Assembly: GCA_964016885.1 (NCBI GenBank)
Contig: OZ024753.1
Span: 12,152,001-12,216,000 of the forward strand
Reading direction: 5' to 3'
DNA: 64,000 nucleotides
From: Eledone cirrhosa
Taxonomy: Eukaryota
Part shown: piece by piece, positions 9,881 to 63,434 of the stretch
Layout of the letters: each line of letters begins with the position of its first letter
Numbering within the stretch: the stretch's first letter is position 1
Translations under genes and position numbers: made by a program
The notes under the pieces: model-generated
What the model saw: the letters and a program-made list of their open reading frames with translations, nothing else
Databases searched by the model: none
What the model was told of the DNA's origin: nothing

Positions 9881-11631
9881 TTGAACTCTATGCCAAGAAC
9901 ATGGATGGGATGAAAAAAAATATTGACCTGGTTACAACGTTCTCAAAGGATATAGGAATGGAGTTTGGTCAAGATAAATGCTCATACATGACTGTAAAGC
10001 GGGGTACAACAAAAACCCAATCTAGCAACATTTTCATCAATGGTCTAACTGTTTCACCGATATCTGATGAGGACTGATACAGATACCTGGGGATAGATGA
10101 GAACATATCCTATAATGGTATCTGTAATAAAGAACGCGTAACCAGGGAATACTACACCCGATTAAGAAATATCTGGTCATCGGAACTCTCTGAGCAAAAC
10201 AAAACAGTGGCTCACAATGTGTTTGCTGTGCCTGTCCTAACATCAACGTTTGGAATACTCAATTGGACGATAGACGAAATCCGAGCAGTTGATGTTGGAA
10301 CTCGAAAAATACTGAACAACACCGGAAACTTCCACATCAAGAGTAAGATAGACCGCCTTTACTTGGAACGTAAGCAGGGAGGCAGAGGCCTAACATCAGT
10401 CCAGACAACATTTGAATGTCGCATCATATCTCTCCGACAACATATACGAACCTCGAAGCGTAGGCGCCCGCTTCTCGAGCAAGTATATCTGCATGAAACA
10501 GATAAGATCATGAGAGTTGGGAAGGAACTCCTTGAGAGATAATCCCTGTGTGATAAACAAAAACTCACACCCAGGGATGTCGCTCAGTAGTATCGCAGTG
10601 AATCCATGGATGAAAATCATTCATGGATATGTTGCCAGGAAGCTCCATAGTGAGAGTAATATAGATAACGAAAGTAGTCTATCTTGGACCAACAACCGCT
10701 ATATTTGCTCCCACTTTGAAGGATACGCTTTTGCAATCCAGGAATAGATTAGCACGAAATACCTGATTCACAAAAGAGATAGGGATGCAGGCAAAACACC
10801 TATATGTTATAACAAGTGCAGACTCTGCAGAACTAACATCGAGGATATCACCCATGTCATAAGCAGCTGTCCAAAGATGTCATCGCGGTGCCGTCTACCT
10901 ATGAGGCATGATGTAGTGGCCAAAACACTGTACAATGCAGTTCGTAAAAAAGATTGCCCCGATAATAAACATTAAAAGCTACAACAATGTGGAAGACATC
11001 CATGTACATAATATGAAAGGGTGGAATGTTCTAGTAAAAACCCCAATAAAATGCAGGCATAACAGACCAGATATTATGAGATGGGACAGGGAAAAGAAGG
11101 CATGCACAGTAGTGGAAATTAGCTGCCCAGCACATGCCAATATAATATCAAATATTAGTGAAAAGGAGAATATTGATGCAGAACTGATGAGAAATCTGCA
11201 GATACTCCACCCTGATTACACCTTCAGATTTATGCCTGTGATTATTGGGGCACTGGGAATGTTAGTAACTGCCTCAATACAAATCTTGAGAAGCTAGGCT
11301 TCACAGGAACAGAAAGAACACAACTAGTTAGAAACTACAAGTACAATCCATTAATGGAACAGTAAAAATATATAAAACATTCCAAAAATGTTGCATCTAA
11401 TAACTGCATATACACATGTACAAATACAAAGCATATACACATGCACACATACAACTCAAAACATCCACATCCACACATACAATAACATCCATATCTACAC
11501 ATGCATGCATGCATACATACATATCTTCCTAGTTGATATTGTGTAAATTCCAATGAGAGAGTCTTGTGTCTATGTTAGAAACCAACTCTCTCTCTATTGG
11601 TAAAACTTTGTGAAATTATAAAACCAGAAGA
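9881..11631 (+). mobile_element. 5'-truncated, decayed Dong/R4-clade non-LTR retrotransposon (RT C-terminus, CCHC, restriction-like endonuclease)
   Basis: Peptides FSKDIGMEFGQDKC, YLGIDE, DRLYLERKQGGRGL, CRLC...HVISSCP...RHDVVAK and RPDIM.WDREKK...VEISCP, interrupted by stops and frameshifts. Confidence 0.9.
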
Positions 11632-13027: not shown

Positions 13028-13410
13028 TTTTAATTAAAGAAATGTAAACCAAATTCACAAAGAAGTGTTTTTTAGTTTACAATTCCTTCAAAACATTTGT
13101 AATCTAATAAACACTGTTCGTGAATTTGGCTTCAATTTCTCTAATTATAACTTTGGTATTTAAGCTCTACCTATATCTTTAATGTTTGGCTTATGCTTTG
13201 TGCATTAAAATTTCGGATTTCTAAAGTGAGAGTGACTATTGTCTCCCTTGCCTCTGCAGGACACCAACAGAGGGCGTTAGACCCATATGTTTTTTGCACA
13301 GATACGGCCTTCTCAATGCTTATCTAAAGACATACTCTGTTTCTTTAGAAATACACAATTCTAATACGTATCTGAATACAGCTATGCCTGAAGCTAAATC
13401 TTAATTCTAT

Positions 13411-21330: not shown

Positions 21331-21397
21331 TATTTTATCTGATGAAAGCGCACCAAGTATGCCTTGGTTGTCCTTGAAATATATATATAATAAAATA
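21331..21397 (+). ncRNA. Type I hammerhead ribozyme
   Basis: TATTTTAT-CTGATGA-[AAGCGCACCAAG tatgc CTTGGTTGTCCTT]-GAAA-TATATATA-TA-ATAAAATA: perfect 8 bp stem I, intact core, palindromic stem III. Confidence 0.8.
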
Positions 21398-23430: not shown

Positions 23431-23485
23431 ACGGCTATATATATTTCAGTTACAGCCATCTTTGGCTGCGATCTCTTCAGGCAGT
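23431..23485 (-). ncRNA. Type I hammerhead ribozyme (one stem I mismatch)
   Basis: Minus strand: ACTGC-CTGAAGA-gatcGCAGCCA aaga TGGCTGTaact-GAAA-TATATA-TA-GCCGT. Confidence 0.6.
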
Positions 23486-23879: not shown

Positions 23880-24072
23880 AACAAAAATAGACATTCGTGC
23901 GATCAAGTATATTTTATTTCAGAGGTACTGAACAGTACGTCGTCATCAGATAAAATGAGATGATGCATGACATACCAAGACTTAGTAGATGGTTAAGATC
24001 CACCCTGTGGAGTGCTTCCAATCTATTGTAAAACTCATTCTTTGATTTATTCATTGAACACTGTTTAACCTT

Positions 24073-28828: not shown

Positions 28829-28903
28829 CACATTATACATATATACACGTTACATATACATTACATATACATATATACATTACATGTACATAGATTGTAT
28901 ATG

Positions 28904-28998
28904 TTTAACTTTGCCATTCATCCTTACGGGGTCGATAAAATAAAGTACCAGTAATGTACTGGGTATTCGCTGGCCTTCTGCCCAAATGTAGAAACAAT
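28904..28998 (+). mobile_element. Nin-domain SINE, 5'-truncated
   Basis: SINE core and tail. Confidence 0.8.
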
Positions 28999-29057
28999 TA
29001 TATATATATATATATATTTACTGTATATATATATGTAATATACATGTATATATTTAT

Positions 29058-29391
29058 AAATAGGATTTCGCTTCAAGCATAGCTTTATACAATATGTATA
29101 AATATTTCGTATCTCCAAAGAAATACGGTTTGAGGAAGCCGTAGCTGGGCTAACGCCCTCTGGTGATGTCCAGCAAGGGGGACAACCGTCTATGCATTTC
29201 AGGCTTAACTGGCCTTCGTCAGACGGTCCCTCCCACCGCTTGCGACTGAATATATACTTCTGTCGTCTGTGTAAATAAGGTGATTAATCTCAGTTGCATA
29301 TGAAGCTGCATAAGTTGGCTCAACTTCTAATAAAAAAGAAATAGGATTTCGCTTCAAGCATAGCTTCATACAGTATGTATAAATATTTCGT
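29058..29391 (-). mobile_element. Retrozyme/pLTR-like unit: 281 nt monomer plus 53 nt terminal direct repeat
   Basis: aaataggatttcgcttcaagcatagc...aatatttcgt at 29058 and 29339, with an HHR in between. Confidence 0.65.
29185..29227 (-). ncRNA. Minimal type I hammerhead ribozyme
   Basis: Minus strand: ACCGT-CTGACGA-AGGC cagttaa GCCT-GAAA-TGCA-TA-(G)ACGGT. Stem III is palindromic (ATGCAT); there is one extra G at the base of stem I. Confidence 0.65.
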
Positions 29392-29631
29392 TCAATATGT
29401 ATAAATATTTTATCTTTGTTATTATAGTACCAGTAAGACTCTTGTGTCGATTAAACTTTCCCCTCCCCTTCAAATTGGTGGCCTTGTGTCTAAATCAGAA
29501 ACCATTACTGCAGAAATAATATACGTTTATTGGCTCTACCTGATTCAACTAATATAAAAGTCTATTAAGGGACATAAATACAAGCAAGCAATCACAGACA
29601 TTTAGTAATATACGTATATATATATAGGTAA

Positions 29632-30655
29632 CATTCTTTATTAGCCACAAGGGCACAAAAGAAGGGGACAAATACAAATGAGGAGTTTACGTACAGGTAT
29701 ATGAAAATAAAACTATTAATAAAACAACAAATAACAATTGAAATCCCCAATAGGGGGGAGGTGTTGCACAGAGGTTATACACACCCCGAAAAAATGTACA
29801 ACCCTCATCTCCAGGAGCACCAAGAGTTAGTACTCCCTTCCTCTCTTCCTCTTTTTCCTCAACCTACAGGCTTATATAGAGAGAAGGCCCAACCACTCGG
29901 GCGTTCTTTGCCACATTCACCAACCTTTTATAAAATTTGCTGGGGTACAGCACCTCTCTCTCCATCCTGATTCTTCTTCCAAAATGATATTTGAAAAAAC
30001 GAATCAGTTGCTCGCCGGAGAGAAAGGTGTCTGACCTCAGACCTTTTAACCTCGTCCACCATATAACCTCTTTCACCATAGCCAAAACACATTGAAAACC
30101 GCCTCTCCCTCGTTTGTGAAGGAGGGTGGCGGTTTGATCATGACAATGGACTAGGTGGTCAACTGGATTGGTCCCACCCGCGACAATAGTCGTTCTACAT
30201 AGCCCCACAGGTCGGTAACGCCCGGGCAGTGTACAAATGCGTGTGCGACGGTTTCCTCGTCGCGCACGCATCTCGGACAGATCTTTCTCGAAGGGTCCCT
30301 ACTCGGGCGCCCGTGTCTGTAGAGCTTGTCTCGAACTGGTAGAGCTCCTCGGTAGCACTGCCAGGCCAGGGACTTTTGGAAGTTGTCCATTGGTCCCGGT
30401 CGGAAGGTCCTACCGAACAGACTGGCCAGTTCGTCCTCCTGTACGCCGAGAGTTTCTCCGAGCGTGTCGTCGCACTTGCTGCGGACCAACCCTCTATAGA
30501 ATATCGAAGTGGAGTCTCCACTGATCGCCGGGTTCGTTTGCCAGAGGACTGTGAGCGCCTGAGCACATTCGATATTCCAGTCGCCCATTTTCCTCGGTCT
30601 TTGCTTGACTTAGGTCTGCAGCTCGGTCAGCGAGACGAGTCGTGGGAAGGCTCGC
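29632..30655 (-). mobile_element. L1/Tx1-clade LINE 3' fragment (zf-RVT region plus 3' UTR)
   Basis: LAWQCYRGALPVRDKL...CPRC...EETVAHAFVHCP...LW motif. AATAAA on the minus strand near 29640; flanked by TA repeats. Confidence 0.85.
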
Positions 30656-35376: not shown

Positions 35377-36033
35377 TAGGTTATATATAAATATATATAT
35401 ATAACCTATATATATATATATATATAGCATATATATACTGTATATATATAACATATATATACTGTATATATATATATATATAACATATATATACTGTATA
35501 TATAACATATATATACTGTATATATATATATATAACATATATATACTGTATATATAACATATATATACTGTATATATATGTTATATATATATATACAGTA
35601 TATAATGCTATATATATATATATACAGTATATATATGTTATATATATATATATATATATGCAGTATATATGTAGTATATATATGTTATATATGTTATATA
35701 TATATATATATATACAGTATATATGTAGTATATATATGTTATATATGTTATATATATATATATATATATACAGTATATATGTAGTATATATATGTTATAT
35801 ATATATATATAGATATATATACAGTATATATGTTACATATATATATAACATATATGTAGTATATATATGTTATATATATATATATATATATAGATATATA
35901 TACAGTATATATGTTATATATATATAATATATATGTTATATATATATATATATGTTATATATATATATATGTTATATATATATATATGTTATATATATAT
36001 ATACTGTGTATATATGTTATATATATATATATA

Positions 36034-36540
36034 TGAATATAGACATAGAATATTCGAAAATATTCTGTATGTTTATAATAAACATTTTGAAGACCTAATC
36101 GCTATAGAATAGAATACGTCACGTATTACAATTAGATTCTCGATAAATTAGAAATTGGAATAAATGCTCTGAAATAGCGATATATATGTGAATATAGACA
36201 TAGAATATTCGAAAATATTCTGTATGTTTATAATAAACATTTTGAAGACCGGCAACCGCTCTTTCAAACCAGTTCCTGTACACAGCTAAGTATTCTATAA
36301 GTCTCTAGCTGTGTCATTCTCGATAAAAGCACTGGATATGTAGTCCTGATGATTTCTAACAAGAATGAAACGCGTAGATTACTTCCCTTGCTTTTATCGA
36401 GAATCTAATTGTAATACGTGACGTATTCTATTCTATAGCGATTAGGTCTTCAAAATGTTTATTATAAACATACAGAATATTTTCGAATATTCTATGTCTA
36501 TATTCACATATATATCGCTATTTCAGAGCATTTATTCCAA
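36034..36540 (+). mobile_element. Fold-back ribozyme-bearing element (pLTR/retrozyme-like)
   Basis: Perfect ~96 bp inverted arms (36155-36250 / 36445-36540). 36034-36147 is an inverted copy of 36393-36506. Central HHR. Confidence 0.75.
36340..36382 (+). ncRNA. Minimal type I hammerhead ribozyme
   Basis: GTAGTC-CTGATGA-tTTCT aaca AGAAt-GAAA-CGCG-TA-GATTAC with a GUA cleavage triplet. Stem I extends past an internal loop by 16 bp (36316-36331 / 36389-36404). Confidence 0.85.
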
Positions 36541-37425
36541 TATATATATATATGTTATATATATATATGGTATATATATATATACAGTATATATATATAT
36601 ATATGTTATATATATATATATATATATATGTTATATATATATATGGTATATATATATATACAGTATATATATATATATATATGTTATATATATATATATA
36701 TATATGTTATATATATATATGTTATATATATATATGGTATATATATATATACAGTATATATATATATATATATGTTATATATATATATATATGTTCTATA
36801 TATATATATGTTATATATACTGTGTATATATATATATATATATGTTATATATATATACTGTGTATATATATATATATATGTTATATATATATATATATGT
36901 TATATATATATATATGTTATATATATATATGTTATATATACTGTATATATATATATATATAACATATATATACTGTATATATATATATATATATAACATA
37001 TATATACTGTATATATATATATATATATAACATATATATATACTGTATATATATATATATATATAACATATATATACTGTGTATATATATATATATATAT
37101 ATAACATATATATACTGTGTATATATATATATATATATAACATATATATACTGTGTATATATATATATATATAACATATATATATATGTAACATTTATAT
37201 ATATATATATATATATATAACATATTTATATATATATATAACATTTATATATATATATATAACATTTATATATATATATATATAACATATTTATATATAT
37301 ATATATATATATAACATATTTATATATATATATATATATATAACATATTTATATATATATATATATAACATATTTATATATATATATATATAACATATTT
37401 ATATATATATATATATATATATAAC

Positions 37426-45500: not shown

Positions 45501-46772
45501 TTCTCTTTTACTCTTTTACCGCCATCCGGTTGAGGCCATGCTGGGGCACCGCCCTTGTTGCTACACATTTTATCTCCAGCCTGTATAGGTTGGCCACTGG
45601 TGTAAGAGGGAGTTTGTTGCTGCTGCCCTTGGGTTTCCCTCGAGTCTTGCTGTGGGCTCATCCGGGATCCTGGATAACAAGGTGTCGAGATGTTTCTTAA
45701 AGACATCCACCTCCACGTCATGCAAGTCTCTCAGATGCCTCGGCAGCCTGTTGAAGAGTTGAGGGCCCTTGAATCCCAGGCTATTGCAATACCTGCTCCT
45801 TATTCTAGATGTGGAAGACGGGACCTTTGGCACCACACAGTGACGTCCTGTTCGACGGTTGGTCCAGCTCCCAATGCCAAAGTTTGGTGCTAGTCCCTCC
45901 AGGATTTTCCACATGTAGATCACTGCGTATCTCTCCCGTCTTCGCTCCAAGGAGTAGAGGTTCAGTTCCTTCAGCCTCTCCCAGTAGCTTGTCTCCCTCA
46001 TCTTGGCAATCCTCTTGGTGTAGCTTCGCTGGATTGCCTCAAGCTCCGTGGTTAGTTTGACACTATGGGGTGACCACAACTGGGAGAAGTAGTCCAGGCG
46101 GCTTAGGACAAAATCCTCCACAGTGTCAACATGGTATCTCGACCTCTTGTCCGGAAAGTCCTCAAGATCAAGCCAGCGAGTCGTCTGCACATTGTCGCTA
46201 CCTTCATGATGTGTGAAGAAAAAGATGCATCATCGCTCATGTCTATGCCCAGGTTTCGTATCGATTTTGACACGGGGATATCGGTCCCTCCTGGTCCTGT
46301 GTAGCTGTGTTCCACTATATTTGTGTTTGCAGGTTTGTATTGTAGGGCTTGGAATTTGCCAGCATTAAACTGCATGTTGTTTTCTTCGCCCATCTGTATA
46401 TGGCATCCAGATCTGCTGTAGAAGGGCAGCGTCAGCCGGGTTTTTGATTGCCTGTGCTACCTTAGTGTCATCAGCATAGCTAGTGAGGGATGTTGTTGTA
46501 TGCACCACAGAGGGCATGTCCAGAGAGCCACGAAAAACAGTAGTGGTCCAGGACTGTCTCCTGGGGCACACCACTTGTTATCGGTGTTTCCCTCGAGAGG
46601 GACCCATTTGCTGCGACTGCCTGGCTTCTGTCCCTTAGGAAGCCATGCAGCCACTCACCCACTTTTCCAGTTATGCCGAGTCCGTGTAGTTTGTGACATA
46701 TCATTCCGTGGTCGACCTTGTCAAAGGCCTTCGCAAAGTCAAGATATATCACGTCTACATGTGAGCTGTCTA
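45497..46772 (-). mobile_element. 5'-truncated CR1-clade LINE (frameshifted RT pseudogene)
   Basis: [43 protein letters not shown] and YWERLKELNLYSLERRRER motifs. Tail GTAAAAGAGTAAAAGAG; both ends lie in TA arrays. Confidence 0.93.
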
Positions 46773-46777
46773 GTAGT

Positions 46778-50840: not shown

Positions 50841-51879
50841 AAATTATTAACGTTGTTGGTTTTCAATCAAAAGTACTTTGTCAGTAAAATGTTTTAACAC
50901 GCAACATGAACTGTGAGTCTTGTTCTGCGGTTGGTTTAAACCTGGAACCATATGTTTCAGAAGGAACATTTACCACACGGCCTTTCCTGAGTTATATCAG
51001 ACGCTAATAAATAAATGTCATCTTACCAGCGTATAGCAATGATATATCCCCATGAAATACATTGTTGATTCCCGATAGCACACTGTTTATTACATTACAA
51101 ATATTATATAAATGTTGGTCTTTACGCTAACTCGATAAGAAACCGATAATATTGATCGTGTTTACACGCAATATATTTTGGTTGTTCAGCTGGAAATATT
51201 GTTGTTGAAAATATCTGCGTTTCTATGAGATTCTTCTGGATGCTACGTAAGTGTATATTGAAACTCTTCGTTTCTTACATTAGTATGAAATTACGTTAGT
51301 TCATCGTCAGAATTATGACAAATCGACATATTTTATTAACGTCTGATTATGAATCCGAACAAAAAGATTCACTGTAGAATCAAGTGAAGCTAAAGGAAAT
51401 TCAATAGAATATATAGTCCAGTAGACTAAATGTATTTTACAATAATTCAATAACCTAACAATTTCCGTTAAAGAAAACCGAGCGAATTTCCCTTTACTTC
51501 AAATATATTCGTATCTCTACAACACAATTCTGTTATAGCATTACCGTTGTTATTGTTTCGATTCTGATTTATTTAAGATACCTATGTTTATTATGTGTCA
51601 CTGATAGTATTTTCCAATATTACCTTGCTCTTCTATGGCTGTAGTTTATATTTTAGGTGAAGTACTAATTCTATTTCTAGCAGGTCGATCGAACATGTAC
51701 AGATACCTTCAATGAATCGAAAATATTAATATATTTCCATATGTGAAAGTATTCCTGAATCTTTAACACAAACATGCAGGACATTATCTGGAGAATTTTT
51801 TTGCCACGTACACATGGAATGGATTATGATTTAAAAAATGTTTGTACTGATTTCTTCATGTGTAGTGTGAATTGTATCA

Positions 51880-52760
51880 ACATGTAAAGAATCGCTGTCT
51901 AACGCTTGTTGTTAGTGGCTCAATGTCATATCTTTTCTGCAAGGTTTGGTTATAGGTTTGTTGTTAAATGATTTTTCATCATTTTAATTCTTTACGGCAT
52001 TGTTTCTGCTGTAATAGAAACGGTGTTATTGCACTCAAGGTCTTCTTCTTTGTATGAATAGAGAATATTTTCTGTGATTTTCAGGGGTTCTGTCTCATTC
52101 TTCATTGAGCATTAGGATTCAAGCAATTAGGGGTTATTTCTGTTTCTGTAGGAACCCCATTAAGCTATGTACAAATACCTTAGGTGCCCGTGTTAAATAT
52201 TTAAACCTGCTGTTTGAGATTCTTCTGGTACCTTCAAGTTAAGTTTTTTCTATTTCCAGTGTGTTTTATATATCACCTCATTTTTGACGTCTTCCAATGT
52301 TGATGCAGTGTTTTGTTAGCTTTTCTAACCAGCCACTTTTACTGCATTTAGCTGTCTCCAGAACACTTCTATATATTATCATTGGTGTTACATTCCTTGT
52401 GTATGGTTTTCTACCAAGTTCCCATATTTGAGAGTGATGTTTTTTTTCTTATCTATGGATTCTTTGTGCTAAGTAAAATCTTTTGTTTTGTTTCGTTTCA
52501 TATGATATTCTGTTTCAGTGACGTCACTCTTTGCCATGTCTTTCATTATTTTTGTGTTCATTTATTCTTCAAGTAGTATTATGTTATTTCCTATAGCATT
52601 TAAACCTGGCAATCCTTTTCTACTATTTACTACACGTTTTGTATATATCTCTTCTTCCTGTTTCTGTTGGTTTTGCCATTGAGGCTTCTATAGATCTGAA
52701 GGAATATTCAACTTGTTTGTAAAACTATAGTGGCTGTTGTGTGTATATTGAAATATCATC
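51880..52760 (-). pseudogene. Very old Dong/R4-like LINE remnant (region upstream of and into RT)
   Basis: Fragments KPQWQNQ, GWLEK, TLEDVKNEVIYKTHWK and LLQQKQCRKE occur in the expected order, with many stops. Confidence 0.45.
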
Positions 52761-53627
52761 ATGCTAAGGGCCCAAATCACATTACACCCTTCTCTCTTCA
52801 GAATAATGACATAATCGATAATATAATACTATTGACATTATATCTGGAAAAAGAAATTCATAATGTACAGCTGAAATACCTTTCATCATAGGTCTGCAAG
52901 TTCATAGCGTTGGGAGATCTACGTTGCAATAGAAATAATGGAGATATTAAATATCCACAGAAAACTGCAGCTAAGTACAATAACACCCTGAGGAAATTTG
53001 TTCCTGTGACTTCAAGTCGAACATTAGGATGTTAAATGACTAATTTATTCAATAGTCATATAAGTATGAAGAGGTTAAATGGTAAATTTATTCAATAGCC
53101 ATGGTAGAATCAAAGCAAATCGGACTTAATCTTAATGAAATAAAACGTCCTCAACAAAGGTTACCGAATATACAGGGAATAAAGTATATTATCGAAAATT
53201 GTTTAGAAAAAATCAAAAGAAATTCGTTTGCATCGCAATATGAAATATAGAGCTGAGAATATAAAGAAAACTAATAACATAGTAAGAAACAAAACTAATC
53301 GAACAGTTTTGAAATAAAGGGCCAAACAAAACAACATATTTTACTGAATATTATCCTTTGTAAATTGTGAACATATATTTCATTGGAGTAAGTTATTTGA
53401 AAATAATGCTAAAACATTGCACTGAGATGCCCGGAGAAATGCATAATGGTGAAGGATAACTCATAAACATCAACGTAGATGAAAATACACTAAGCTAAAT
53501 CGTAAAGTAAACCACAGAAATAGAAAATAGACCTTTCAATGAAACCAAAAGCAGAATGAATTACAATATATAAATCCTAACATGTCCACATTTACTATTG
53601 TGGAATTTATTAATATTATCTGGATTG

Positions 53628-53815
53628 TGGTGGATTTGCAGTATCGGTAGAGGGTCGGATGCTATGCTTTGCAGCAAAGACTTACGGCCCTATATGATCT
53701 GAGTTCAAATCCCGCCGAGGTTAACTTTGCCTTTCATCCTTACGGGGTCGATACAAATAAAGTACCAGTCATACACTAGAATAATTGCTGACCTTGTGTC
53801 AAACGTAGAAACAAT
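53628..53815 (+). mobile_element. Nin-domain SINE
   Basis: B box and core; TSD-like ATTAT(C/A)TGGATTG. Confidence 0.85.
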
Positions 53816-54171
53816 TATATGGATTGATAACTTCGGTAGTCCCGAATGTATACTAATGCTTGTCCTTTCTAGCAAAAATAATAAACTAGTACCGCAGTGG
53901 TATAGCATCAATCCACAAAGACAGAAATGAGATACACAAACATATTAAAATAAACAACATTTTGTTGTCGGGTGAACAATTGGAAATGTATCAATGAAGA
54001 TGCTATATAATTATAAATTGGGATCTGAAAAACCTTTAGCCAGGAATAGTAGTCGACTATGTCTACGAGGTAAAACAATATATCATGTCTATATGATTTC
54101 AATGCTTATTAAATGTCAGGAATGGAGGGATGAGAGCGTTAAATGAAAATACGGAATATATATTCATTAAT

Positions 54172-54348
54172 TGTTTCTACTTTAGGCACAAGGCCAGCAA
54201 ATACCCAGTGCATTACTGGTACTTTATTTTATCGACCCCGTAAGGATGAAAGGCAAAGTCAACCTCGGAAGGATTTGAACTCAGATCGTAAAGGGACGTA
54301 ACTATGCTGGAAAGCATGGCCTCCGACCCTCTACATATACTGCCAATT
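54172..54348 (-). mobile_element. Nin-domain SINE
   Basis: TSD TATTCATTAAT. Confidence 0.9.
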
Positions 54349-54394
54349 TATTCATTAATGCTGCCTCGTAAGTTCGTGCATTTCCCTAAAATGA

Positions 54395-54660
54395 TGAAAA
54401 ACATTGCAGCAATACAATGGGAGGGAACATGACATCACTGATGATGTCACGAGTGTGTGAAGAAATAATTCTGAGAAATTATACTTGTTTATATTTATAA
54501 CTGTTGGTCAATCAATGATTAATGTTGATTGCCAGCTGAATTAATTATAGATATATATAATATACTGAAGTAAAAATCAACCAAAACCAAACAGTGTGTG
54601 TTTTATTATATATTTCTGGCAATATTATAAAAACATGACCCTCCCAAAATATAACAATAT
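54395..54660 (+). mobile_element. Solo PLE pLTR with HHR-like motif
   Basis: Aligns with 56425-56695; CTGATGA-tgTCAC gagtgt GTGAa-GAAA at 54438-54465. Confidence 0.7.
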
Positions 54661-54959
54661 AAAAAAACATTATTGACCTAAGACATGGTTATAAGAATGA
54701 ATTCTATCTTGCTGGCTTTAGAGACGAATAAAATATAGAACTGCTAATCAAAGTGACAGGATATAAGTACTTCCAGCTAAGCTGATTTCCTCACACTTCC
54801 CTCGTGGCTTTTTGATAGTTAAAAGGCTATGGGCGCGATATGGATAGATGTTCTGTTTATAATGCGCCGAAACATCCATGATCCATTGTAAACAGCTGAC
54901 GAAGGGAAACTGTCCATCCCTTGTTTGTGTCGCCTTACCTTCTAACACTATATATATAT

Positions 54960-56237
54960 ATTTATTTATTTGTTTTGTAAGGTATTTAATATGAAATCGT
55001 GTGTCGAAACAAATATTGTTATACTTGGGGATGGTCATAGTGTTATGAAGTGAAGGCGTGTGGCTGAGTGGTTAGAGAATTGGATTCGCAATCGTAAGGT
55101 TGTGAGTTCGATTCCTGGACCAGGCGATGCGTTATGTCCTTGAGCAAGACACTTTATTTCACGTTGCTCCTTCTACCTGGAGTTGCGACCGATAGATAGT
55201 ATTAGCAATTGGAAAGACCAACGGAAACATTGTTCCCTCGGTCCGATTTGACGAAAGTCAACCGTTCCTTATAGTGTTATGATATTGCCAGAAATAATAA
55301 CAGAACACACTCATTGTTTGATTTCCTAACTAACTGCATAATAGCCAGTATGGATGTAGTATCTCTGTACCCATCCATTAACAATGATTTTGCTTTGGAA
55401 AAAATGTGGGGAAATAATCAATGAGATCGAAGTAGAGTTCTGCGACGTCGACACAGATGAACTGGGCCTCCTACTTAGACTTACTACTTATGACACCGAA
55501 TACCGAGATAATCATGACCTTTGCTGATTCTGCCGCAGTTGACCTATATGAGGTAGACCCCCCCCCCCAACCACCACCACCACCATAACCACAATTTCTA
55601 AAAGGACTCCCATAGGAAGATGGATTGGATGGACCAAAGCGATACGGACACCCCAAAACAATGATCAGGTGAGATAAATAGGGGCTAGTATTAAAACTAC
55701 TCTAAAGGGCCATATGTTTATATTTAATCAAAAGATCTACACCCAGAATAAGGGAGCAGCAATTGGCGTCAGCATAGCTGGCGATGTTGCCAATCTATTG
55801 GTATGGTGGGTGAGGAGACTCTACCCCTTTAAGAAAACCTACTGTACGAATAAGAAATGTGTTATATGTAGAATGAACCACCAGATAAATTGTAAAACTA
55901 GATATGTAGTCTATAGTATAAGATGTACAGAGGGTACTTGTAGAAACATGACAAAAAGATACAAAGGTGAGACAGCTCGAAGCATAGGAGAAAGAATAGA
56001 GCAACTTCGGGGAGAGATAAAGGGACAAAAAAAGGAGACGGTTCAGTACTATATGAACACGCCAGACAAAAACATAACGGTAATATAGACAACATAGAAA
56101 TGACTCAACTGGTAGGCAAGTCAGAGAAACAACTGAGATAGAACTAAGAAGACCGATGTTGAACAGAAAGACCCAATGGAAAAACAAAAACAATCATACC
56201 CAAACAAACAATACTGACTTAAGGGAAACATAAATAA

Positions 56238-56282
<45 letters not shown>

Positions 56283-56700
56283 AGTACAATGACAACAAAC
56301 ACATATAAAAAAAACTAGTTAACAAAGATAGAATACGAAAACAAAAGAATAACATACCCTCAAACGCGAACGCAGAAACACAAACGCATGTGTAGAGACA
56401 GACAAAAATAAATAAATAAATTTAAAAAAAATGGCAATACAATACAATGGGAGGAAATATATTAGCACCACTGACGATGTCACAGATGTGTGACGAAAGA
56501 AATTTGATAGACTATATATATATTTTTTTATCTGTATTTTTAACCGATGGTCAACCAATGATAAACATTGATTGCCAAATAATTAACTATGGAGATATAA
56601 AAGATACAGAAGCGAAGACCAACCAAACAGTGAGTGTGTTCTGTTGTTATTTCTGGCAATATTATATCAATATGAACCTCCCCAAGTATAGTTATATATA
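54960..56700 (+). mobile_element. Penelope-like (Neptune-type) retroelement, internally deleted, with inverted 5' pLTR and direct 3' pLTR
   Basis: RT motifs IASMDVVSLYPSI and YTQNKGAAIGVSIAGDVANL are fused to the GIY-YIG region C...C.IC...CKTRYVVYSIRC...YKGETARSIGERI. Inverted pLTR at 54960-55320. Confidence 0.85.
55049..55270 (+). mobile_element. tRNA-derived CORE-like SINE nested in the pLTR
   Basis: A box TGGCTGAGTGG, B box GTTCGATTCC and CORE-like TGTCCTTGAGCAAGACACTT. 12 bp TSD ATAGTGTTATGA. Confidence 0.85.
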
Positions 56701-56746
56701 TAGATATCCAAAATTAAGGGTGTCATGTTCAAGAGACAGGCGCCAT

Positions 56747-56793
<47 letters not shown>

Positions 56794-57539
56794 CATCATT
56801 ACGCCATTTGTAGAAATTGCTCCTGGCATATATACCTTTAATGATATGGGTAAAATGGTTGATAGATATTCCGGAATCGGGGAATACACAATCTTTTTAC
56901 CTGAAAAGATTGTAATATAACGGATTTTAATAAATTCCCTATTTGATTTAGTAAAGGAATTTGCGAAGATAATCGGATCGAAACTATGGTAATTTGACCA
57001 GAAAGAAACAACTACTTGATCACACTTCCCCGAATTGTCTCTGTACGATCAGGTTATATTAACATCAAACGAAAGCTGGTGAATCGGAGTTACATTTGTT
57101 TACATAGTTTATACAAACTTTTACTTCAATAAAATTGTAAATGTTATTGAATCTAGAGAGCCGTGTATTTGTATAACCTAAGTATTCCATAATAATTTTA
57201 ATACGTACGCACACACGCGCGAAAACACATGGACAAGCAGGCACACACACACATATATATATATACACATATACATGTGTGTTTGTGTGTGTATGTGTGC
57301 ATATATATATACATGTATATCTATTTATGTCTTTATATATATATGCGCAAACAATATTATTTACGATTGCACAATAACAGCACCTATAATCTAATTTTTA
57401 TTTTCGATTCTCAATCATGAATAAAGTGGTTGCTTTGAAATGTGTCTATAGTAATATAGAGAACATTACTTTACAAATTACATGATCATATTCTGGGACA
57501 AATACATGCACACACACATACATACACATACATACATGC

Positions 57540-59480: not shown

Positions 59481-59765
59481 TGTAAAGTTATATTTAAAAT
59501 TGTTGGGTTACAACTAGTAAATATTTATAACTAATATAAAAGCACTCGACAAATATTTGGAGTATATTTACAATATTAAATAAATGGAAAACTATATTTA
59601 TAAAACCATATTTATTTCATTATATATATTTCGGGGATATCATATTAACAATATGCTATGCCTTCATCAGACAAAATACAATATAAACAGTTTTATAGAT
59701 AAATATATTCGACATACCGTAATAAACATCAACGTCATTTGAAGAGGTTTACTCTAGTTTACTCT
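59479..59765 (-). mobile_element. ~285 bp HHR-bearing island between TA arrays (same family as 21260-21435)
   Basis: The flanks align with the 21.3 kb copy (ggttatgtc.aatattt...ttgtatttt.tctgatgaa; tatggttttataaatatagttttccattta). Confidence 0.75.
59613..59678 (-). ncRNA. Type I hammerhead ribozyme
   Basis: Minus strand: TATTTTGT-CTGATGA-aGGcATAgCATATT gtt AATATGaTATcCCc-GAAA-TATATA-TA-ATGAAATA. Stem I is preserved by G-U pairs. Confidence 0.75.
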
Positions 59766-62169: not shown

Positions 62170-63138
62170 ATCCGGGTTATTGGTTGGTTCCACAACCAGA
62201 TGGTTGTTCATACATTGTCAAATTCTTTCGTCGCACATTCTGTGACCTCTTCAGTGACTGGGAATTCATTTCTTTGTTTTGGTGCCTCTCCTTTGTTCTT
62301 TCCTGCGCCATCTTGTTTCTGTGTGTGTGTGTTGTGTGCTCAGTCTGCGCATGCGCCACATCCGGGTGTCTGTGTGTTTATATTCGTTTATTTATTTGTT
62401 TATTTACATGTTACTGGTTGGTTGGTTGTTCTATGTGCGTGTGTGTTTTCAATTTGTCCTTAATTGTAAGTTGAGATGTTCCTGTTCCACTCATGATTTC
62501 TATTTAATTTTGGTTGTAATTCTTTTATGTTTATTGCCTCTATGATTTGCCTAAACATTGCGTCTTTTCTGTGTGTAGATTCTATTTTTTATTTCTATGT
62601 TGTCTAATTTACCCTTATGTTCTATTTTAGCATGTTGGTAGAGTACAGATGATTTTTTACTATCTTGAAGGTCTCGCCAATGTTAATTTATCCGTTCCCA
62701 TATACTACGAGCTGTCTCACCTATGTACACTATATTTTTATCTCTACATTGTCCTTCAGTACATCTTATGCTATATACTACATTTCTAGTTTTACAGTTA
62801 ATATGGGCGCTTAATTTACATATTATACATTTCTTGTCTATACAGGGAGTTCTTTGAAAAGGGTATGTCTTGCTAATAACTGTTTTTATGGAGGTACCTG
62901 GTGTTTCTACTATCTTAATATTGAGTTCATGTTTATTTAGGGCCCTTCTAAATGTGTAAGCTAATTCACCTCTAGGGGTTGTATCGATGAACATTACACT
63001 CTGGTATTTATTGCTATTATACCATGAGTTTATTCTATTAGCCTTATTCCTAGTTCTTTCTATTCTATTCTAAAATGTGCTCCTATACAAGGGGCAGGTC
63101 CCATTTGTGTCATTATTTGCCATTTTTTCTCATTTGGT
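62170..63138 (-). mobile_element. Penelope-like element 3' part (GIY-YIG endonuclease region, 3' UTR, pLTR with HHR-like motif)
   Basis: ORF 62683-62994 reads C.DKKCIIC...CKTRNVVYSIRC...YIGETARSIWERI. The motif GTCA-CTGAAGA-gGTCAC..GCGAC-GAAA-GAATT-TGAC is at 62258-62217. Confidence 0.85.
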
Positions 63139-63204
63139 TATATATATATATATATATGTATATTTATAATATAAGATCAAAAGATGGTTAAAGGAGTTCC
63201 ATAT

Positions 63205-63271
63205 ATTTTATTATGCGCATTTCAAAAACAAACATCATCAAGCAATAATATTTGTTTTCATCAGATAAAAC
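63205..63271 (-). ncRNA. Type I hammerhead ribozyme
   Basis: Minus strand: GTTTTAT-CTGATGA-AAACAAATATTATT gctt GATGATGTTTGTTTtt-GAAA-TGCGCA-TA-ATAAAAT. Enclosed by a 17 bp IR at 63166-63182 / 63333-63349. Confidence 0.8.
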
Positions 63272-63434
63272 AGGAGAACATGATATGAAGGCTAAAAAAC
63301 ACTTGTTGATAGTGTAGTTTTAAATCAACTTGTTTTGATCTTATATTATGCATACTCCAGTCCACAAACTGTAGAGTGCTTCTTATCCGATATCTGCATT
63401 GCTTTATTGTACTACAATAAAACTCACCTCCTAC

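Follow-up and report, generated by a model that had tools for sequence, protein, structure and literature searches.

A 1.19-unit insertion of a very abundant non-coding hammerhead family in Eledone cirrhosa, probably mobilised by Penelope-like enzymes

The insertion and its neighbours in the window

The stretch analysed here, hereafter the window, comprises 64,000 nucleotides of the Eledone cirrhosa genome (assembly GCA_964016885.1, contig OZ024753.1, positions 12,152,001 to 12,216,000). Positions 29058-29391 harbor an insertion of 1.19 units, made of a 53-nt 5' copy and a 281-nt unit featuring a single hammerhead. Read in the hammerhead sense, the locus passes from an 18-nt re-copy to the repeat, a T-run, an upstream segment, the hammerhead, a downstream segment, the repeat again and a (TA)n tract (Table 1). 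The direct repeats at 29058 and 29339 and the lack of an open reading frame, both noticed in a first-pass annotation made from the sequence alone, were borne out: the repeats are identical at 51 of 53 bases with an offset of 281 (E 7e-20, BLAST inside the window), while ATG-started frames reach at most 54 aa and stop-to-stop frames at most 75 aa. The unit has a GC content of 0.43 (43%). The same annotation had overlooked that the 18-nt sequence of 29090-29107, which occurs only twice in the window, is repeated exactly at the 5' junction, where the re-copy likely reflects a slip of the reverse transcriptase. AT-rich or (TA)n flanks are found at 29058 and 13411. No target site duplication was found at the insertion, the best match between its flanks being 6 AT-rich bases, and a tRNA-derived promoter was sought in vain, with no tRNA found in the window.

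Table 1. Features of the insertion, of its relative and of the other hammerhead and Penelope-like sequences in the window
Feature	Position	Strand	Remarks
3' terminal copy of the 53-nt repeat, abutting (TA)n	29058..29110	-	3' end of the insertion; short hairpin 29083-29070
Segment downstream of the hammerhead	29111..29184	-	the outer arm of helix I falls here (29177-29173)
Type I hammerhead with palindromic helix III	29185..29227	-	cleavage predicted at 29191/29190
Extended helix I, 5' arm, with loop 1 and the outer arm (29243-29239)	29228..29249	-	
Candidate snRNA-type promoter	29250..29299	-	octamer 29299-29292, PSE-like 29283-29267, TATA 29256-29250
T-run at the head-to-tail junction	29332..29337	-	3' end of many other family copies, followed by (TA)n
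Redundant 5' copy of the 53-nt repeat, forming a pseudo-LTR-like partial tandem	29339..29391	-	
18-nt re-copy at the 5' junction, identical to 29090-29107	29393..29410	-	
Diverged relative (downstream segment and repeat)	13233..13406	+ (hammerhead sense)	ends before (TA)n
Second hammerhead element, between (TA)n runs	36030-36541	+ (hammerhead)	hammerhead 36340-36385; type I, intact-looking, long outer helix I, Rfam HH9 E 0.026
Cys cluster and GIY-YIG-like fragments	55678-56088; 62683-63069	+; -	62% alike over 63 aa
Long-helix-II hammerhead cores	56471; 62226-62254; 54438	+; -; +	related; one after each GIY-YIG-like fragment
Further hammerhead-core matches	21339; 59629-59670; 63204-63272; 23917-23949; 23444-23480; 51271-51310	+; -; -; -; -; -	

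The diverged relative, previously placed at 13236-13410, was recovered with slightly different limits. Its repeat part is 57/76 identical to the unit (E 1e-9) and the part matching the segment after the hammerhead 35/47 (E 0.003), and its 3' end coincides with that of the studied unit, both preceding (TA)n. We considered that this relative might start exactly at a hammerhead cut and dropped the idea, since the bases upstream of 13233 weakly align to the hammerhead at 36346 (score 39, reached by 3 of 200 shuffles) and since family copies show no accumulation of ends at the cut site among 18 of the 420 loose ends; a decayed hammerhead may possibly lie just upstream, at about 13214-13232.

The window is unusually dense in hammerhead motifs, with 13 core matches. 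The 36030-36541 element is a young Penelope-type insertion, in which two inverted 5'-truncated copies (36030-36147 and 36154-36250), 99-100% identical, precede the hammerhead; the family represented by 36251-36541 is not alignable overall to the studied unit, 6 of 200 shuffles scoring as well. The two GIY-YIG-like fragments are remnants of coding Penelope-like elements, with one weak Pfam match (E 0.08) for one of them and none for the other; by their motifs, we take them to be Neptune-type. Several of the further core matches have an AT-rich helix I and a palindromic helix III, and those at 21339 and 59629 have common downstream sequence. None of 10 other hammerhead-core regions in the window aligned to the unit better than its own shuffles, and no autonomous partner with the same 3' end or pseudo-LTR as the unit was found in the 64 kb.

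Other repeats were also observed. Two SINE-like pieces (28903-28990 and 29425-29505) flank the element at a distance and resemble what we take to be the 3' part of a common SINE, presumably of the octopus tRNA-derived type; these pieces and the TA-rich DNA around them have a cephalopod look. A GC-rich stretch at 29154-29165 (minus strand), kept in the relative at about 13262-13279 (plus strand), resembles what we presume to be a CTCF binding motif. On the minus strand, 29864-30609 is a piece of a LINE that contains a zf-RVT domain (Pfam E 1.1e-7), and decayed non-LTR pieces at 10078-11297 and 45570-46776 gave no Pfam match. The repeat-finder output for the whole window was dominated by microsatellites.

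Family copies, closed unit and internal motifs

Other copies were read from four of nine public sequencing runs, by alignment to positions 29030-29424 at 80% likeness. Runs X1 and X2 come from the same sample, possibly the source of the assembly, X4 carries another organism label, and X7 consists of RAD reads from an independent study. The stretch recruited 2,584 of 16,285,364 contigs in X1, 2,667 of 17,142,217 in X2, 2 of 8,254,286 in X4 and 1,453 of 12,467,656 reads in X7. Summed depth, which is not a copy number and whose dips track the indels of this copy, amounts to 100,000-200,000 over indel-free parts, compared with about 5 for the contig identical to the locus, and we infer a family of thousands to tens of thousands of copies. 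Depth is high over 29058-29365 and collapses outside, climbing at 29058 from about 3,500 to 52,000-57,000; the upstream segment is as deep as the 3' part, with no fall toward the 5' side. Both differences between the direct repeats are private to the 5' copy (29367 C>T in 234/235 reads and 29373 G>A in 19/20 reads of X7), hence the repeats were identical at insertion.

Other copies are longer than the one at the locus: an additional 6 nt follow 29171, another 12-14 nt follow 29146, and some 21 nt more are found near 29248, the first two stretches being also present in the 13233 relative. Loose ends occur at 29222, 29248 and 29263. These extra stretches imply a common unit of about 320-325 nt, from which this copy is short by about 42 nt in four places. 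The retrozyme-like architecture proposed earlier on a 281-nt monomer is upheld as a short non-coding hammerhead unit whose copies span a head-to-tail junction, while the length given for it is not that of the common unit. Records 1 and 3 of X1, 86-92% alike, span the sites of the missing stretches with few gaps; a short form near 282 nt may therefore be a minor subfamily, so that the loss would not be wholly private. This copy also has about 7-8 substitutions of its own. Separately, 106 reads of X7 diverge from the unit at 29094 and continue into sequence that starts with CTAG, where a different mobile element may have inserted into one copy. Putative relatives in metagenomes (a 19-nt pattern, 3 loci, matches of at most 23 nt) and viruses (a 15-nt pattern, 49 loci) were taken as chance, the longest alignment over all 52 loci being 28 nt. 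No description of the family was found in the literature on octopus hammerhead ribozymes or on retrozymes and polymerase III, subscription journals and Repbase/Dfam being outside the scope of this search.

The unit closes on itself: contigs cross all four internal joins, from the repeat to the upstream segment, the hammerhead, the downstream segment and back to the repeat. Eight of the contigs listed pass from the upstream segment into the repeat, and loose ends bridge the upstream segment and the hammerhead. The junction between repeat and upstream segment is common in the family (depth 54,000-70,000 at 29338-29351), and no alternative continuation behind about 29338 appears among the 18 best-supported of the 420 loose ends. 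Record 17 of X4 steps back by 281 and then runs 83 nt past the junction, an overlap of more than 53 nt; a contig of X2 steps back by 280, extends beyond 29093 for 39 nt or more and has as much on either side. The evidence for overlaps above 53 nt consists of two or three individual contigs with a depth of 7-16. None of the contigs or reads is long enough to display two hammerheads in tandem.

The 3' ends of the copies are clustered. Loose ends before 29330, 29336 and 29058 are mostly TA-rich, with 26, 27 and 31 contigs at the three sites; in X7, 246 reads end before 29058, and 107 reads before 29330 carry a different, A-rich flank. Among 18 of the 420 loose ends, the usual 3' end of the family is the T-run, 5-9 nt beyond the end of this copy, and there is no pile of ends at the hammerhead cut site. 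Inverted 5' copies are represented by four opposite-strand joints among 15 of the 17 joints, plus record 18 of X4 (5' to 5'), each on a single contig.

The family hammerhead is a canonical type I motif, with a 6-bp helix I, a 4-bp helix II and a short palindromic helix III; 9-mers in the loose-end consensuses at 29248 and 29172 are exact reverse complements and give a 9-bp outer stem that extends helix I. At the locus, on the minus strand, the 5' arm of helix I (29227-29223) is followed by CUGACGA (29222-29216), a 4-bp helix II (29215-29201), GAAA with palindromic helix III (29200-29191) and the 3' arm of helix I (29190-29185), with a UA cut site. The motif annotated earlier is present, except that its helix I closes only through a 1-nt slip. 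One helix I base beside the core is missing behind 29221 in this copy and present in others, namely in 53 contigs of X1, 43 of X2, 1/1 of X4 and 40/363 reads of X7, while a further 48 and 46 contigs and 175 reads show a loose end at 29222; with this extra base, helix I is a perfect 6-bp stem. In its absence, pairing of C3, U4 and G5 with the strand of the cut site is predicted (probabilities 1.0, 0.98 and 0.89), and opening the catalytic core would cost 5.9 kcal/mol; according to this folding model, the missing base would trap the core. Being both single and damaged, this hammerhead would not allow the locus to release a circle by itself. Among 40 of the 79 substitutions, none affects the core, helix I or helix III, and two unphased helix II variants (29213 and 29203) would turn a G-C pair into A-U. 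Rfam gave no match in the window at gathering score and no hammerhead model on 29058-29391 at E up to 10; it is insensitive to such hammerheads, as the intact one at 36346 reaches only E 0.026.

Upstream of the hammerhead, the octamer matches at 7/8 positions in this copy and at 8/8 in the family, the difference being 29293 G>T (152,643 of 152,908 in summed depth for X1 and 312/314 reads in X7); it has one exact match in the 64 kb. We take this octamer to be a promoter motif and the stretch that follows presumably starts like a vertebrate PSE, while the TATA box stands immediately before the outer helix I. The deepest segment of the unit is 29282-29309, a depth that depends on the differences of this copy. 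TACACAG lies exactly 10 nt before TATA in both the studied unit and the 36346 family, and their 3' hairpins are similar too. This 7-mer is found upstream of only 2 of the 13 hammerhead-core matches, the two with a 6-bp helix I and a 4-nt palindromic helix III. Outside microsatellites, the 7-mer-plus-TATA pattern was observed twice for 0.085 expected, after 7 of 9 matches lying in or against microsatellites had been set aside; a shared run of at least 7 at equal distance from TATA has P 0.0018 (5,000 shuffles, TATA fixed) for a motif chosen after the fact. Common ancestry could explain the shared pattern.

Judged by sequence, the octamer, PSE-like and TATA motifs may form an internal promoter of the snRNA type, comparable to that of newt satellite 2. 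The spacer between the PSE-like motif and TATA is 10 nt as drawn, compared with 15-19 in human and 14 in S. japonicum; no mollusc PSE was found in the published literature, the available portions of PMC9652321, PMC10886601 and PMC11892584 holding nothing usable. The 36346 unit contains internal T4 runs, which speak against a straightforward use of polymerase III. We tentatively raise the possibility, which we rate as doubtful, of a self-transcribing retrozyme, where the predicted octamer, PSE and TATA of each unit would start RNA at the foot of the long helix I, and the junction T-run, being leaky, would both end most transcripts and mark the start of Penelope reverse transcription. If true, the design of newt satellite 2, an snRNA promoter with a hammerhead, would also be an invertebrate design, and both the high expression of retrozymes and the existence of solo copies as dead ends would be explained. 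The candidate promoter concerns the least understood step of the cycle.

Origin of the insertion

The clustering of 3' ends before (TA)n together with inverted 5' copies reproduces the pattern of Penelope-like elements, so that we are dealing most likely with a non-autonomous hammerhead unit mobilised by Penelope-type enzymes, an identity in which we have high confidence. Hammerhead-bearing non-autonomous Penelope partners are already known as a class across animals. As to how this copy arose, we consider somewhat probable that it is a mutated 1.19-unit insertion of a very abundant non-coding family of about 0.3 kb, mobilised in trans by Penelope-like enzymes from an uncut multimeric transcript. 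The endonuclease would nick (TA)n DNA, a junction-spanning RNA would be reverse transcribed from a fixed position beside its 3' hairpin, and the reverse transcriptase would copy one unit plus 53 nt, slip once (18 nt) and stop; point mutations, and the loss of the helix I base at the least, would come after insertion. Against this explanation, the two 3' end positions are only 5-9 nt apart, whereas a typical Penelope tail measures 30-40 nt.

The first-pass annotation had seen here just over one round of reverse transcription on a circular RNA of about 281 nt, and had proposed to check whether other copies are circular permutations or multimers of this unit. The 3' ends are clustered and not freely permuted, and since Penelope reverse transcriptases start internally on uncut RNA, a linear multimer yields the same overlap, which alone cannot discriminate a circle. 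The full cycle that this view belongs to is the classical one of retrozymes, where tandem masters are transcribed, paired hammerheads cut monomers, a host ligase circularises them and a Penelope-type reverse transcriptase runs 1.19 rounds from a fixed internal site. It agrees with the closed unit map, with overlaps of varied length and with a family hammerhead that is canonical and not minimal in the sense of PMC4209133, and retrozymes of similar size in coral, mussel and axolotl are expressed as circles (PMC7229834). We nevertheless find it rather unlikely. Hammerhead cutting is dispensable for Penelope insertion in vitro (PMC11167929), hammerhead-less Naiads produce the same partial tandems (PMC8557442), only 1 of 9 tested Xenopus dimers was cleaved (10.64898/2026.07.22.740005), and arrays with two hammerheads were not seen in contigs and reads too short to hold two. 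The unit does fold as a circle better than shuffles (z -3.1, 0 of 100 as good), but we rejected this strong folding as evidence for a circle because the opposite strand is just as stable (z -3.1, matched by 1 of 100 shuffles). A linear template is thus slightly favoured over a circular one, the latter being possible since retrozyme RNAs accumulate largely as circles. Circular copying was proposed in the retrozyme papers without demonstration there, and a fixed 3' start combined with such abundance means that genome data alone could decide between circles and linear multimers.

The outcome that the earlier annotation had opposed to its own reading, in which every copy derives from a long coding Penelope-like element as a fragment, does not hold among the copies examined. 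The locus would in that case be a pseudo-LTR piece, a 3' end truncated on its 5' side and preceded by a second, shorter truncated copy, and truncated Penelope-like elements do carry most hammerheads in such genomes (PMC4209133), partial tandems being their normal form (PMC8557442) and the 3' end being fixed here as well. This origin is improbable in view of an upstream segment that joins the repeat, and no coding frame, in the contigs listed, with no other continuation among the 18 best-supported of 420 loose ends, of a depth that does not drop toward the 5' side, and of coding fragments in the window that precede a different, long-helix-II hammerhead (56471 and 62226), while the 10 other core regions resemble the unit no better than shuffled sequence. 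We give still less credit to an origin of the 53-nt repeat at the DNA level, by local duplication or by recombination trimming a tandem array to 1.19 units, which would be uninformative on the RNA template. Unequal crossover can grow or shrink such arrays (10.64898/2026.07.22.740005) and an 18-nt local duplication adjoins the repeat; yet the repeat-to-upstream junction is family-wide and the 3' end of this copy is the usual one of the family, and recombination would keep the ends of an original insertion that already required a junction-spanning template.

Comparison with known systems

Penelope-like elements display partial tandems, inverted 5' copies and (TA)n targets (Craig et al. 2021, PMC8557442), and in experiments with a purified Penelope-like protein, AT-rich DNA was nicked, reverse transcription began at fixed internal positions and insertion was as efficient with a dead hammerhead (Frangieh et al. 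2024, PMC11167929). The studied family resembles their non-autonomous forms in the full unit behind a 5'-truncated copy, the inverted 5' copies, the (TA)n targets, the lack of a clear target site duplication and the fixed 3' start. It differs from Penelope-like elements in its 3' ends, which among 18 of the 420 loose ends are offset by 5-9 nt, compared with an optional 30-40 nt tail, from coding ones in having a canonical hammerhead where theirs is minimal (PMC4209133), and from an autonomous element in that the unit closes on itself with no ORF for a reverse transcriptase and GIY-YIG.

Animal retrozyme RNAs are largely circular (Cervera and de la Pena 2020, PMC7229834), and a circular template has been proposed for retrozymes (PMC4209133, PMC7229834). 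With the metazoan non-LTR retrozymes, the family shares a non-coding unit within 150-450 nt (281 here, about 320-325 commonly) and below 50% GC, a canonical type I hammerhead with palindromic helix III, head-to-tail junctions and coexisting Penelope-like elements; solo 'monomer' copies are also described there. Xenopus retrozyme families match pseudo-LTRs (Li, Clavereau and Pollet 2026, 10.64898/2026.07.22.740005), in a work whose family tables cover vertebrates, three insects and a coral, and for these authors an active retrozyme consists of two consecutive hammerhead units. Unlike such an active retrozyme, the locus holds one damaged hammerhead in 1.19 units and is therefore a solo derivative. 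The available portions of PMC7229834 and 10.64898/2026.07.22.740005 describe neither the octamer/TATA module nor the fixed 3' end.

The closest parallel for the module lies in newt satellite 2, driven by an snRNA-type promoter, and in the Schistosoma hammerhead repeats (PMC2220036, PMC6765202), which likewise have a unit of about 0.3 kb with the promoter, here predicted, before the hammerhead. In those systems, this order means that only tandem copies regenerate the full unit. The long arrays of these repeats contrast with the short contigs and reads at hand here, in which none was seen, and the newt satellite uses polymerase II, whereas the TATA box of the promoter predicted here would point to polymerase III.
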